This document shows, piece by piece, positions 51,707 through 61,365 of a stretch of DNA of 64,000 nt; the stretch's first letter is position 1, and every line of letters begins with the position of its first letter. Made by a program: the position numbers and the translations under genes. The stretch spans positions 1-64,000 of the forward strand of contig JBIJBE010000006.1 of assembly GCA_044345405.1 (NCBI GenBank), in the 5' to 3' direction. Below the pieces are notes generated by a model. It searched no databases. It worked only from the letters and a program-made list of their open reading frames with translations, and was not told the DNA's origin. The DNA comes from Bdellovibrionota bacterium (lineage in GTDB: Bacteria > Bdellovibrionota_C > UBA2361 > OMII01).

Positions 51707-51782
51707 GCCGCCCTAGCTCAGTTGGTAGAGCACTTCATTCGTAATGAAGGGGTCGCGTGTTCGATTCACGTGGGCGGCTCCA
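51707..51782 (+). tRNA. tRNA-Thr (anticodon CGT)
   Basis: GCCGCCC/GGGCGGC acceptor stem, D arm AGCTCAGTTGGTAGAGC, anticodon arm CTTCA-TTCGTAA-TGAAG, TTCGATT T loop, encoded CCA. Confidence 0.96.
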
Positions 51783-57695: not shown

Positions 57696-58077
57696 GGGCG
57701 ACGAAAACAAACTCTGCCGCACTCTCAAAGATGTCTTGCAAAGCGATGACGATCACGTCGACGTGGGACGTCCTAGGTAAACCGTCGACGGCTCACGGTG
57801 TACGTTTTGCGGTCGACGTCAGTCATCATAGTGCATCCCTTTGTACACTGCGGATCGCAAGAGGTTCTGGGCAAGGGCAAGGGAGCCAGGAGGCTAAATA
57901 CCGTTCTATTTCAACACCCTGTAGTACGACTCAAACCGATGAGCTCTCATACCGGTAATAAAGGTCATGGCCCTTCTCGTGGTTTTTAGTCACCTAAAAA
58001 GGCCTAAGCCTTGTTCTGCCTAGCTCATCATGTCACGATCGAGGCCCGGTTAATTGTATACGTACGCAGAAGGAACC

Positions 58078-58968
58078 ATGTACCACGGAGATGTTGAGAA
58101 TAAGAACGAGCCATTCAGCTTCATGAATATCGTCAAGCAGGGAGTGTTCTGGTCTGTACACCTCGCCTGCCTTGCGGTCATCTGGGTTGGTTGGAGCTGG
58201 ACCGCGGTAACGGTATGTCTCGCCCTCTACGTGATACGTATGTTCGCGATTACGGGCGTTTATCATCGCTACTTCTCGCACCGGTCGTACGACACAAGCA
58301 GGGTGTTTCAATTTCTCTTGGCGTTACTTGGAACCACAGCGGCTCAGAAGGGACCGATCTGGTGGGCCTCGCACCACCGCCATCACCACCGTCACTCAGA
58401 CACCGAAGAAGATATTCACTCACCGATCGTTCACGGTATCTACTTCTCGCATATCGGTTGGGTGTTGAGCTCTCAGTTCCTTGAGCCCCGCCTCGACCTC
58501 GTCAAGGATCTCACGAAATACAAAGAGCTCACCATTCTTGAGAAGTACAATGTGATTCCGGTGGTCCTTCTCGCGGTGTGCACATTCTTCCTTGGAGTGT
58601 ATCTCCAGAGCGCGCATCCCGAGCTTGGAACAAACGGTTGGCAGATGCTCGTATGGGGCTTCTTCATCAGCACCGTGCTGCTCTACCACGGCACGTTCTG
58701 CATCAACTCATTTACTCACCTGATTGGAAAGCGGCGATTCCCTTCCACCGACCACAGCCGCAACCACTGGTTCTTGGCCCTGATAACTCTCGGCGAAGGA
58801 TGGCACAACAATCACCACTACTATCCTGGTTCAGAGCGCCAGGGCTTCTACTGGTGGGAGATCGATGTCTCGCACTACATCTTAAAGGTGCTCTCATGGT
58901 TCGGCTTGGTATGGAATCTTCGCGTTCCTCCACAGCGTGTCTATGAGGCCGCTGGAAAGCTTTCGTAG
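58078..58968 (+). CDS. acyl-CoA/acyl-lipid delta-9 type desaturase
   Basis: His boxes HRYFSH, HRHHH and HNNHH; GEGW. Confidence 0.93.
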   Translation: MYHGDVENKNEPFSFMNIVKQGVFWSVHLACLAVIWVGWSWTAVTVCLALYVIRMFAITGVYHRYFSHRSYDTSRVFQFLLALLGTTAAQKGPIWWASHHRHHHRHSDTEEDIHSPIVHGIYFSHIGWVLSSQFLEPRLDLVKDLTKYKELTILEKYNVIPVVLLAVCTFFLGVYLQSAHPELGTNGWQMLVWGFFISTVLLYHGTFCINSFTHLIGKRRFPSTDHSRNHWFLALITLGEGWHNNHHYYPGSERQGFYWWEIDVSHYILKVLSWFGLVWNLRVPPQRVYEAAGKLS

Positions 58969-58990
58969 TTTGTTTTCACTATGAGGCGAG

Positions 58991-59261
58991 TCATCGCGGC
59001 ATCTCGCGTCCCGCGGTACCTTCACACTCATAAGAACGTAGGGAAGGCCGTTACACAGCTCACCCTGAGTAATGGACGATTAGATTGCTCCTTCGCTTGT
59101 CGAGGGAGATTGGTTCCCCAGTTGGTTTAATCACTAGATTGAGCCGTTCAGTAGAGGGACTAAGCCGGGAATGCCTACGATACTGCTGAGGTAGTAGGTA
59201 CCGGTGATCTAATGAACTCTGCGCTCGGAACCCGACTATAACTGGTAGTCGGGTTTTTTTT
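58991..59261 (+). ncRNA. unassigned structured RNA, copy 1, with intrinsic terminator
   Basis: Nested helices supported by covariation with copy 2; terminator at 59229-59261. 5' end approximate. Confidence 0.7.
59229..59261 (+). terminator. intrinsic terminator of copy 1
   Basis: AACCCGACTAT/GTAGTCGGGTT stem with a T8 run. Confidence 0.88.
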
Positions 59262-59361
59262 ACCTCCATGCCGGACACATGAGCCAACGTGACCGACGAT
59301 GAAGCGCACAAGCTATAGGTCGCTGGGTAAATTTCGTAAATTGTTTTCAACCTAATCCCAA

Positions 59362-59630
59362 TCATCGCGGCATCTCGCGTCCCGCGGTACCTTCACAATC
59401 ACAGAACGCAGGGAAGGCTGTTACTCAGCTCACCCTGAGTAATGGACGATTAGGTTGCTCCTTCGTTTACCGAGGGAGATTGGTTCCCCAGTTGGTCTAG
59501 CCTAAAAATTAGATCGTTCAGTAGAGGAACTAAGCCGGGGATGCCTGCGATACTACTGAGGTAGTAGGTACCGGTGGTCTAATGAACTCTGCGCTCGGAA
59601 CCCGACTATAACTGGTAGTCGGGTTTTTTT
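59362..59630 (+). ncRNA. unassigned structured RNA, copy 2, with intrinsic terminator
   Basis: Same fold as copy 1 with compensatory changes; terminator at 59599-59630. 5' end approximate. Confidence 0.7.
59599..59630 (+). terminator. intrinsic terminator of copy 2
   Basis: Stem identical to copy 1, with a T7 run. Confidence 0.88.
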
Positions 59631-59657
59631 ACCTCCATGCCGGACACATGAGGAGCC

Positions 59658-60722
59658 GTGACCGACGATGAAGCGCACAAGCTATCAATTCGGGAACCGT
59701 ACCTTCCGTACAGTCAGTCACTAGCGCTAGGACTCACCACTCTGTGGTTTATCTATCTCTGCGCCTCGATCGTTAAGCCGTTTTTTTCGGTGCTCGCATG
59801 GTCACTCGCGCTCGCGGTAGCTTCCTATCCCGTCTCATCGTGGCTTAAACAACGAATTCGCAGTCGTTCGCTCGCCTCATTTCTCGCGCTTACCCTCGCG
59901 ACAGTTGTTATCTTTGTTCCGACGCTATGGGTATTGCGGATCCTTATTAACGCCGCGGCTGAGAATATCACGAGCGTCATTCAACAGTCCGGCCTGCGTG
60001 TATGGCTCGATCCTACGACGGCCCCTCCCCGCCTCGCCCCGCTCATGGTGTGGCTTGAGCAATCGCTCCATCTCCAACAGCTCGTCACTGATTTCGTGGC
60101 ATCGGTGGGGCAGCGGTTACCTCAACTTATTACGATGTCGCTGATCGGACTTGTTCAGGTTTTGTTGATACTCTTCACCACATTTTTCTTTATGAGAGAC
60201 GGAGAGCTCTTCTTCTCTTACCTCAAATGGGGAGTCCCGCTCCCTGAACAACAAACGGAGAAGGCGGTGTTTAGGGTGCTCGATACGGTACACGCCTGTC
60301 TCTTTGGGGTTGTCCTGATGGCGGTGCTCCAGGGGGCGCTCGGGAGCGCGATCTTTTGGTGGCTGAGGCTCCCTCAACCGGCGCTGTGGGGGATCGTGAT
60401 GGGGCTGCTAGCCATAGTGCCGTACCTAGGCGCGTTTGTGATCTGGATTCCCACCGCTTTCGTCCTCGCTCTGCATGGAAGATGGAGCGACGCGGTTGTG
60501 CTGGTGATATGGGGAACGATCGTCATAGGACTCGCGGACAACTTTCTCTATCCCGTTCTTGTCGGGAAGCGACTTCACTACCACACCCTTCTCATTTTTC
60601 TCTTCATATTGGGAGGTGTGTTTGTATTCGGGAGCGCGGGGATCGTGGTGGGGCCGATCGTTCTAAGCGCGACCCACAGTCTGATCGCGTTGTGGAACGA
60701 TGGGGAAATCCGTCGACGGTAA
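59658..60722 (+). CDS. AI-2E family (UPF0118) transporter
   Basis: KPFFSVLAWS, FFFMRDG, QGALG, IVPYLGA...WIP, DNFLYP, GG...FG..G..VGP; GAGGAG RBS. Confidence 0.92.
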   Translation: MTDDEAHKLSIREPYLPYSQSLALGLTTLWFIYLCASIVKPFFSVLAWSLALAVASYPVSSWLKQRIRSRSLASFLALTLATVVIFVPTLWVLRILINAAAENITSVIQQSGLRVWLDPTTAPPRLAPLMVWLEQSLHLQQLVTDFVASVGQRLPQLITMSLIGLVQVLLILFTTFFFMRDGELFFSYLKWGVPLPEQQTEKAVFRVLDTVHACLFGVVLMAVLQGALGSAIFWWLRLPQPALWGIVMGLLAIVPYLGAFVIWIPTAFVLALHGRWSDAVVLVIWGTIVIGLADNFLYPVLVGKRLHYHTLLIFLFILGGVFVFGSAGIVVGPIVLSATHSLIALWNDGEIRRR

Positions 60723-60795: not shown

Positions 60796-61365
60796 TTAGT
60801 GCGCGGATGGTTGCTCAGATGGTGCCTCTCCTCGCCCCTTCCCCGCCGGCTTTTCAAGTTGTCGCGGAGCGCCCGGCTGGACCTGAATACGTCGGGCTTG
60901 CAGACGGGACTGCTCGGTTTTTGGCAGAGATACGGTGAGCACTCCTCGGTCGAAGTTCGCCTGTATCTGACTCTCCTGGACTTCTACCCGAAGGGGGATT
61001 CGTCGCTCAAACGCGCCATATCTCCACTCGGAGTAGCGGGCGCCACGGATCTTCGACTCACGTTGCTCCTCCTCTTTCTTTTCACCTTTAAGAACGAGGT
61101 AGCCTGGCTCGAAGGTGACCTCGATATCGCTCTCCTTCATGCCAGGAAGCTCTGCCTGGACTCGGATCTCTCGCTCATCCTCCGACACGGAGACCTCGGG
61201 TTGAAACTCGCGCTGACGAATGGACGAGACTCCGACCGGCTCCCACACGTCCTGAAGCGCGGAGTTAATCGCTCGGCGCATCTGACGAATAATCGGGGCG
61301 AAATCACTGCCAAAGAACTCTTGTGGAATAAGTGGGTACTCACTGCGTGGCATAGAAACCTCCAT
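60796..61365 (-). CDS. Hsp20/alpha-crystallin small heat shock protein
   Basis: AELPGM...LVLKGEK...YGAFERRIPL...ANFDRGVLTVSLPK. Confidence 0.92.
   Translation of the reverse strand: MEVSMPRSEYPLIPQEFFGSDFAPIIRQMRRAINSALQDVWEPVGVSSIRQREFQPEVSVSEDEREIRVQAELPGMKESDIEVTFEPGYLVLKGEKKEEEQRESKIRGARYSEWRYGAFERRIPLRVEVQESQIQANFDRGVLTVSLPKTEQSRLQARRIQVQPGAPRQLEKPAGKGRGEAPSEQPSAH

Follow-up and report, generated by a model that had tools for sequence, protein, structure and literature searches.

The nearest analogue by arrangement of the locus described here is found in Pseudomonas aeruginosa, for which PMC2851614 describes near-identical tandem small-RNA genes, PrrF1 and PrrF2, and a third, longer transcript from the same locus. 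We propose that a tandem pair of sibling small-RNA genes also lies between a fatty-acid desaturase gene and an AI-2E family transporter gene in positions 1 to 64,000 of contig JBIJBE010000006.1 (assembly GCA_044345405.1), a stretch of 64,000 nucleotides (nt) called the window below; the source organism is an uncultured freshwater bacterium of the Bdellovibrionota, known only from a metagenome-assembled genome. On balance, the evidence favours two autonomous genes, each with a Crp/Fnr-type promoter, whose trans-acting product is held in helices at both ends. The longer PrrF RNA arises by read-through of the first terminator. PrrF1 and PrrF2 are Fur-repressed, base-pairing small RNAs of 114-116 nt, whereas the window RNAs measure about 195-235 nt, are almost fully helical, share no sequence with PrrF and have bodies that have diverged by 12%. 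As in such a pair, there are two homologous RNA genes, each with its own terminator and its own promoter, the latter predicted from conserved architecture.

By promoter type, the nearest described genes are CyaR and FnrS, which have class II Crp/Fnr-dependent promoters and produce short, Hfq-dependent small RNAs. The window RNAs resemble them in a TGA-N6-TCA-type inverted repeat over the -35 region, 22 base pairs (bp) from the second base of the -10 hexamer, but this candidate site differs from the class II consensus in its right half, TCAT(C), and in its left half, TGA or TAA with a variable preceding base. The layout also recalls that of terminating riboswitches, tandem ones included, where a domain closed by an outer helix (P1) is followed by a terminator before a transporter gene, here twice in series. 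A further comparison is with 6S RNA (RF00013), a promoter mimic that binds the RNA polymerase holoenzyme and serves as template for product RNA. It forms a long irregular rod with a large central bubble between the closing and terminal stems, is likewise non-coding with paired ends and is the one housekeeping RNA undetected in the window genome. Finally, raiA motif RNA and OLE are orphan structured bacterial RNAs, all of them in Rfam. Like these, the window RNAs are multi-helix, covary strongly and are present in RNA libraries; unlike them, they match no Rfam 15 model, have a much narrower distribution and show much faster sequence turnover.

The duplicated units and the RNA genes that they contain are as follows.

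58946..59316, + strand: duplication unit 1, with the last 23 nt of the desaturase gene, putative promoter, RNA copy 1, terminator and AI-2E start remnant (pairwise alignment)
59317..59687, + strand: duplication unit 2, with a desaturase 3'-end remnant, putative promoter, RNA copy 2, terminator and the true AI-2E start (pairwise alignment)
59030..59264, + strand: RNA copy 1, start predicted, end at the terminator U run; covarying fold and RNA-library contigs
59401..59634, + strand: RNA copy 2, start predicted; helices as in copy 1, shifted by +370

Including the terminator, the transcribed unit would be about 232-235 nt long. The 371-bp repeat unit duplicates the whole spacer between the desaturase gene and the AI-2E transporter gene, and units 1 and 2 show 92% mean column identity over 383 columns of their alignment. 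Two tandem copies of a structured RNA with terminators had been the core of the original prediction, made from the letters of the window alone; the alignment bears this out, with the same terminator helix in both copies, and the listed copy-to-copy differences are real. Identity is complete over the promoter spacer plus -10 hexamer (27/27 positions) and nearly so over the terminator (37/38), and stands at 88.1% in the RNA body, where 11 of the 23 differences fall in hairpin P5a and its loop. The desaturase remnant of unit 2 (59317-59339, 23 nt), which serves no use there, is 76.7% identical between units. The AI-2E start remnant of unit 1 (59289-59316, 28 nt) consists of GTG and eight codons, followed by a stop created by the junction. 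We also observe that the stretch 59265-59316 past the terminator is 92% identical between units, much of it being conserved in single-copy relatives as well. The two units are the sole copies in the 3.59-Mb, 99%-complete assembly. A DNA contig of lake-water run X1 (59231-59391) reads across the junction, so the duplication did not arise in the assembly of this record.

The pair is old and has been maintained. Metagenome locus L081, 90.7% identical to the window over 1255 nt, holds the same two copies; its first copy shares the characters of window copy 1 and its second those of copy 2, including both P5a versions, T/C at 59039 and A/G at 59177. Cross-copy BLAST matches reach 84.7-86.5%, against 90.7% for the colinear, like-with-like match. 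Since copy-specific characters are common to L081 and the window, the duplication is older than the divergence of these lineages, each of which has retained the pair. A pair of this age with one rewritten hairpin offers a natural experiment on how sibling RNAs diverge. Both copies are present in RNA libraries, although such libraries can hold DNA. Six metatranscriptome runs contain 0.17-0.21 of the sampled words of a 1501-nt query, and all three runs compared, from three studies, yield separate contigs for copy 1 (59054-59223, 59059-59223 and 59099-59285) and copy 2 (59426-59593, 59418-59577 and 59441-59592) with 0-1 mismatches. Contig depths cannot rank genes, and the gaps give no basis for relative abundance or for a 5' end at about 59054. 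No organism-matching contig in these three runs lies on the desaturase gene, the AI-2E gene or 58997-59053, where only short pieces with mismatches or loose ends occur, and such uncovered parts prove nothing. Some RNA contigs stop at 59223 (runs X19 and X21) and at 59593/59592 (X19 and X18), with adapter letters following in X19, whereas DNA contigs continue to 59237 and 59607, a limit set by the repeat at k=31. This gives a weak hint that the molecules or their complementary DNA end 4 nt before the terminator stem; poor priming in the terminator hairpin is an equally good explanation.

The RNA is widespread within one genus. Single copies were found by BLAST in 7 other genomes (41 searched, G000 included), and a covariance model built from 8 sequences matched 17 of 35 genus genomes at E<=0.01 and, under stricter filters, 0 of 56 genomes of other genera in the order. 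The desaturase ortholog could be retrieved from 34 of the 35 genus genomes, and with filters off, weak model matches appeared directly after the desaturase gene in 14 of 18 further loci. Inspection of the spacers raised the tally to 32 of 35 genomes with the RNA in this slot, a total of 33 copies. It is missing from G013 (70% complete, without a desaturase match), G004 (82% complete, with a paralogous desaturase only) and G042, whose desaturase locus is present. Downstream of desaturase orthologs in four other genera of the order there was nothing comparable. A pattern scan of metagenome contigs added three further type-A members; another candidate, L082, fits the DNA pattern, fails the model and was discarded as a chance match.

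The members form eight sequence types, A-H, that barely align with one another. Their predicted transcribed length ranges from about 137 to about 242 nt, counted from about 6 nt past the -10 hexamer to the terminator U run, and the folded body from about 100 to about 200 nt, the smallest type core being about 100 nt; within the RNA, all eight types share only P1 and the terminator. Rfam 15 (4227 models) gave a single gathering-score match in the 64-kb window, a tRNA gene (51707-51779, + strand, 65.9 bits). At E<=10 the region 58900-59720 gave only sub-threshold, terminator-driven matches, and at E<=1 there were none in 15 related loci, which agrees with the earlier statement that the RNA is unassigned. 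Among the papers listed for Bdellovibrio with noncoding or 6S RNA, nothing concerned this family, supplementary files being outside the scope of the search. As far as these models and texts reach, this is a new structured small-RNA family without homology to any described one. It adds a well-supported family, absent from Rfam 15, from a lineage that has no cultured member.

What lies at the 5' end of each copy? The putative promoter elements in the window are these.

58980..58995, + strand: upstream promoter element of copy 1, TATGA-GGCGAG-TCATC, a Crp/Fnr-like inverted repeat
59017..59022, + strand: -10 hexamer of copy 1, TACCTT, with conserved TAnnnT
59351..59366, + strand: upstream promoter element of copy 2, CCTAA-TCCCAA-TCATC
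59388..59393, + strand: -10 hexamer of copy 2, TACCTT

Over the 33 copies, T(G/A)A, TCA(T/G) and TAnnnT are the sole conserved 5' features, with 22 variable bases before TAnnnT. TCA(T/G) occurs in 33/33 members and T(G/A)A, six bases upstream, in 30/33, and the CTAA-N6-TCAT variant seen in copy 2 recurs in types B, E and F. TAnnnT is likewise present in 33/33, and its spacing from the T of TCAT is exactly 26 nt in 31/33. A TGn precedes the -10 hexamer in 16/33; both window copies have CGG there instead. A spacer of free sequence but constant length between two fixed motifs argues for a promoter, and by this geometry the first 40 nt or so of each 'copy' is a promoter whose -10 hexamer is TAnnnT, extended in about half of the members. 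The repeat of about 270 nt first described therefore stands as a duplicated RNA, but its length does not, some 40 nt of it being promoter. A reading of TCAT and the variable stretch as a 5' hairpin and tail of the RNA was abandoned in view of the constant distance of 26 nt to TAnnnT. Two conserved motifs at a 5' end with a variable 'hairpin' between them may be a promoter, a caution for any interpretation made from sequence alone.

With the 26-nt spacing, 22 bp lie between the 16-bp site and the second base of the -10 hexamer (31/33). PMC10187061 describes this distance as found in class II promoters exclusively, with the activator positioned over the -35 region; the same source gives the consensus as TGTGA-N6-TCACA. 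The spacing is thus that of a class II Crp/Fnr-dependent promoter. The window genome encodes two proteins with a Crp-type helix-turn-helix. The predicted transcription starts, at about 59030 in copy 1 and 59401 in copy 2, precede P1 by 1-4 nt; in copy 1 the start lies 7-9 nt past the -10 hexamer, and the upstream element (58980..58995) is centred about 41-42 bp upstream of it.

The fold was derived with RNAalifold from 8, and then 11, type-A sequences, which gave nine helices. In the list below, all on the + strand and in copy 1 unless stated, percentages are cells paired and counts are pairs changed on both sides.

59034-43 with 59217-26, + strand: P1, GAACGUAGGG with CUCUGCGCUC, enclosing the whole body; 99.0%, 2 pairs
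59048-58/59065-75, + strand: P2 hairpin; 98.2%, 5 pairs
59079-86 with 59206-13, + strand: P3, AUUAGAUU with GAUCUAAU, closing the four-way junction; 95.5%
59088-95/59101-08, + strand: P4 hairpin; 97.7%, 5 pairs
59110-17/59156-63, + strand: P5 arm; 96.1%, 5 pairs
59123-32/59137-46, + strand: P5a hairpin on P5; 89.9%, 5 pairs
59164-68/59201-05, + strand: P6; 98.1%, 3 pairs
59173-78/59194-99, + strand: P6a on P6; 84.8%, a value lowered by two rows misaligned by MAFFT; 4 pairs, for example AUUCGC:GCGAAU in G014
59227..59264, + strand: intrinsic terminator, helix 59229-39/59245-55; 99.2%
59404-13/59587-96, + strand: P1 of copy 2
59599-609/59615-25, + strand: terminator of copy 2

Throughout the alignment of 11 type-A sequences (alignment A5), 95.7% of 812 cells pair and 30 of 74 pairs are changed on both sides; none of 500 shuffles reached any of five measures, and slid-partner controls were 29-44% paired. 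The many G-U pairs, together with the terminator, place the RNA on the + strand only. Type A comprises a three-way junction (P1/P2/P3) and a four-way junction (P3/P4/P5/P6), and the 3' strand of P1 abuts the terminator. The P2 loop region, GCUCACCCU, is near-invariant in this type, P3 varies on one side only and so lacks compensatory support, and P5a is the part most rewritten between copies 1 and 2. Of the two intrinsic terminators, the scanner called that of copy 1 (59227-59257, 13 pairs and a T run) and not that of copy 2, whose hairpin, 59599-59609/59615-59625, is the same helix in the alignment.

Outside type A the body takes other forms, the type B consensus fold being a three-way junction. 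In every type, however, a closing helix joins the first bases of the predicted transcript to the bases just before the terminator, as seen in the consensus folds of the seven types with more than one member and in the minimum-free-energy fold of type H. The sequence of P1 differs among types, each with its own complement: GAACGUAGGG, GAGACGUUGAGC, GGGUCGCUGAG, CGAACGCUGUG, GAGCUAACCGAG and ACGUUGCUUAUG. The argument for P1 across types follows from its constant place and changed sequence and depends on homology, which in turn follows from the shared slot and the shared promoter; in an alignment of all types (A7), MAFFT set the types in different registers. It is unusual to find together a promoter architecture in every member, a fixed geometry of P1 and terminator, and a body rewritten nearly in full several times within a genus. 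A conserved frame around a rewritten body raises the question of what selection acts on in such an RNA.

Of the eight helices in the original prediction, four (P2, P4, P5 and P5a) hold in relatives, the arm TTGGTTCC/GGGACTAA being P5. The others gave way to the present model. For the proposed outer helix CGGTACCT/AGGTACCG, only 68.6% of cells are paired over the 11 related sequences, and its 5' strand falls within the -10 region; CGTAGG/CCTACG (81.8%) and ACTGC/GTAGT (85.5%) conflict with the better-kept helices of the P1, P6 and P6a set, and GGC/GCC conflicts with P2 and P6. The double change T59039/A59177 to C59409/G59547 had been taken as one compensated pair. Both substitutions are genuine, but wobble absorbs each of them separately: U59039-G59222 becomes C-G in P1, and A59177-U59195 becomes G-U in P6a.

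Several further candidates were dropped. A pseudoknot of the P2 loop UCACC with GGUGA (59203-07) is contradicted by G010 (GGAGG) and G022 (GGAAG), which change while the loop does not (alignment A5). A CsrA-type GGA decoy lacks a repeated loop motif, and a hammerhead-like CUGANGA reading misfits the core; Rfam is silent on both. As for coding potential, relatives do not keep the + strand frame that begins at ATG 58981, copy 2 itself having no ATG and an indel separating the copies at 59032, and a minus-strand frame of 101 amino acids (59060-59365) spans the junction and is therefore impossible in single-copy relatives.

How might such a gene work? A Crp/Fnr-family activator, bound to T(G/A)A-N6-TCAT about 41.5 bp upstream of the start, would recruit RNA polymerase with the help of the TAnnnT -10 hexamer. 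Covariation shows the transcript folding from its first bases into P1, with the three-way and four-way junctions inside and the 3' strand of P1 leading directly into the intrinsic terminator. With both ends in helices, the RNA would be stable and could act in trans. A protein-binding or scaffold RNA appears likelier than a classical seed-pairing small RNA, since no single-stranded seed conserved across types was seen. Siblings that differ mainly in P5a may have different partners. Paralogous trans-acting RNAs had been one of the two readings first offered, and it is the one that fits the evidence best, given the promoter and terminator of each copy, the independence from AI-2E and the maintained pair.

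Several observations pull the other way. No trans target or partner has been identified, in an analysis that made no target search. The transcription start and the Crp/Fnr assignment come from sequence geometry and not from a mapped 5' end. The right half-site is TCAT(C) and not TCACA, with T instead of C after TCA in 32/33, and the G before T, that of the GT core, occurs in a minority only. A simple sigma-70 scan gave no promoter at the locus, as would be expected of a promoter that has no -35 hexamer. Taken sequence by sequence, the P1 duplex is not significant (median z -1.7; in 3/33, at most 5 of 300 shuffles were as good). Lastly, the RNA-library contigs show presence and not strand, level or ends, in libraries that can contain DNA.

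The remaining points of this kind are those that favour a cis-acting leader, in which a riboswitch, a protein-dependent attenuator or a thermosensor would gate read-through into AI-2E, the pair forming two serial checkpoints. We consider this unlikely, yet it survives better than the other alternatives. Promoter, P1-closed body, terminator and a start codon 23-28 nt further on make up the layout of a terminating riboswitch. An intact AI-2E gene follows in 21 of the 28 genomes whose contigs extend 1 kb or more beyond the RNA (G050, G007, G012 and G047, whose contigs end within 300 nt, being left out), and type A leaves almost no room for a promoter of its own. An alternative helix CGUAGG:CCUACG, between the 5' strands of P1 and P6a, could form in 81.8% of cells, a property required of a switch, and shows two-sided changes at 2 pairs; it does not touch the terminator. 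No conserved antiterminator was found by eye, and the lone complement, GGUUCC (59112-17) to GGAACC (59227-32), is changed in G044. Nor is there a conserved sensing core or a genus-wide ligand core: eight types occur in one genus, with bodies from about 100 to about 200 nt, whereas known riboswitch aptamers keep their cores across phyla. No full-text match in the literature joins 'AI-2E' and 'riboswitch'.

The neighbourhood points in the same direction. The usual order is desaturase, RNA, AI-2E gene and a convergent Hsp20 gene, and had the RNA been a leader for the transporter, it should always precede the gene that it controls. Instead, 7 of the 28 genomes keep the RNA without an intact AI-2E gene: G022 retains the first 43 codons only, and G046, G016, G045, G019, G049 and G003 have none. 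In 5 of these 6 there is no ortholog of the window transporter elsewhere at E<=1e-20; more distant PF01594 paralogs lie on other contigs. The next gene is the convergent Hsp20 gene in G045, G019 and G046, the terminator facing it directly, and a co-oriented DUF3015 gene in G016. All three type-D genomes lack the AI-2E gene, and G049 differs widely from G045 and G019 yet shares their consensus fold, which type D has thus kept after the loss. The desaturase gene is upstream of the RNA in 28 of 32 genomes, with a remnant in G022, and in G024 and G046 another, divergent gene takes its place. As it is kept both without AI-2E and without the desaturase, the RNA outlives both neighbours; added to a body almost completely replaced from type to type, this speaks against a ligand-sensing leader and disfavours the tandem riboswitch or attenuator that was the other reading first offered. 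In type A, where about 23-28 nt separate the terminator U run from the AI-2E start codon, transcription of the transporter gene must come from read-through or start at a promoter within the RNA gene, and AI-2E is likely to be affected secondarily in cis. Under the trans-acting reading, AI-2E would be transcribed by polymerases that read through, as a side effect and not as the RNA's reason to exist.

A bolder form of the trans-acting reading would have the siblings represent a new class of ends-locked, fast-evolving, protein-binding RNA, possibly a stand-in for 6S RNA, switched on by a Crp/Fnr-type signal, with P5a giving each sibling its own partners. We regard this as improbable.

It is very unlikely that the RNA merely comes from processing of the 3' part of the desaturase transcript, or serves to insulate the desaturase gene from those downstream, with no trans function of its own. 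Co-transcription is possible, the RNA lying 20-60 nt past the desaturase stop codon in most genomes, but a conserved promoter architecture stands between stop codon and RNA in 33/33 members, G024 and G046 have the RNA with no desaturase upstream, and copy 2 is preceded by a 23-nt remnant only and is nevertheless found in RNA-library contigs. An insulator would need a terminator only, not about 190 nt of covarying helices.

Least probable of all is a lineage-specific stand-in for a housekeeping RNA, above all for 6S RNA in a non-canonical branched form. RF00013 has no match in the window genome at E<=10, nor in 91 genomes of the order at E<=0.01, while RNase P, transfer-messenger RNA and signal recognition particle RNA are all found in the window genome, and the RNA has its ends paired as in 6S and is present in RNA libraries; against this, the fold is branched, with neither the long rod nor the central bubble, its size varies down to a core of about 100 nt, the RNA was found in one genus whereas the 6S gap spans the whole order, and the resemblance to a 6S central bubble noted earlier dissolves, the 'unpaired TTCACA... 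strand' falling mostly in the stretch that leads from the -10 hexamer to P1. The 6S search matched only 4-7 of 14 control genomes (4/14 at E<=0.01), and with an order-wide gap and so few control matches the gap is neither genus-specific nor strong evidence. Either 6S RNA is too divergent across the order, or the search is insensitive.

The genes that flank the RNA pair in the window are the following.

58054..58968, + strand: fatty-acid desaturase gene, upstream (PF00487, E 4.1e-17)
59658..60722, + strand: AI-2E family transporter gene (PF01594, E 1.5e-46), its GTG start about 23 nt past the U run of the second terminator
60796..61365, - strand: gene of the Hsp20 family, convergent with AI-2E (64% identity at E 1e-71 in tblastn with the Hsp20 from L029; Pfam on the copies in relatives)

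Comparison of type A with the other types gives only 36-46% identity for the AI-2E protein downstream of the RNA, and the upstream desaturase stays at 77-96%; judging by these values, the transporter is either evolving much faster than the desaturase or has been replaced. At the G022 locus (L020, about 1350-1960), only two short fragments of the desaturase survive (residues 131-159 and 280-304), and a TauD-family gene comes after the AI-2E remnant on the opposite strand. Between the desaturase fragments and the AI-2E remnant, the RNA is intact and scores best in the family. In G019 only, an open reading frame of 209 amino acids (L036 750-1379, - strand), with no Pfam match, is inserted upstream of the RNA, after the desaturase gene. 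The type-D RNA is separated from the Hsp20 gene by a long inverted repeat that is close to perfect (L036:1974-2055 and L031:1231-1314), and that of L036 is hit by microRNA-precursor models on both strands at 44 and 38 bits, below threshold. The desaturase and Hsp20 genes on either side of the RNA might hint at a theme of temperature or membrane stress.

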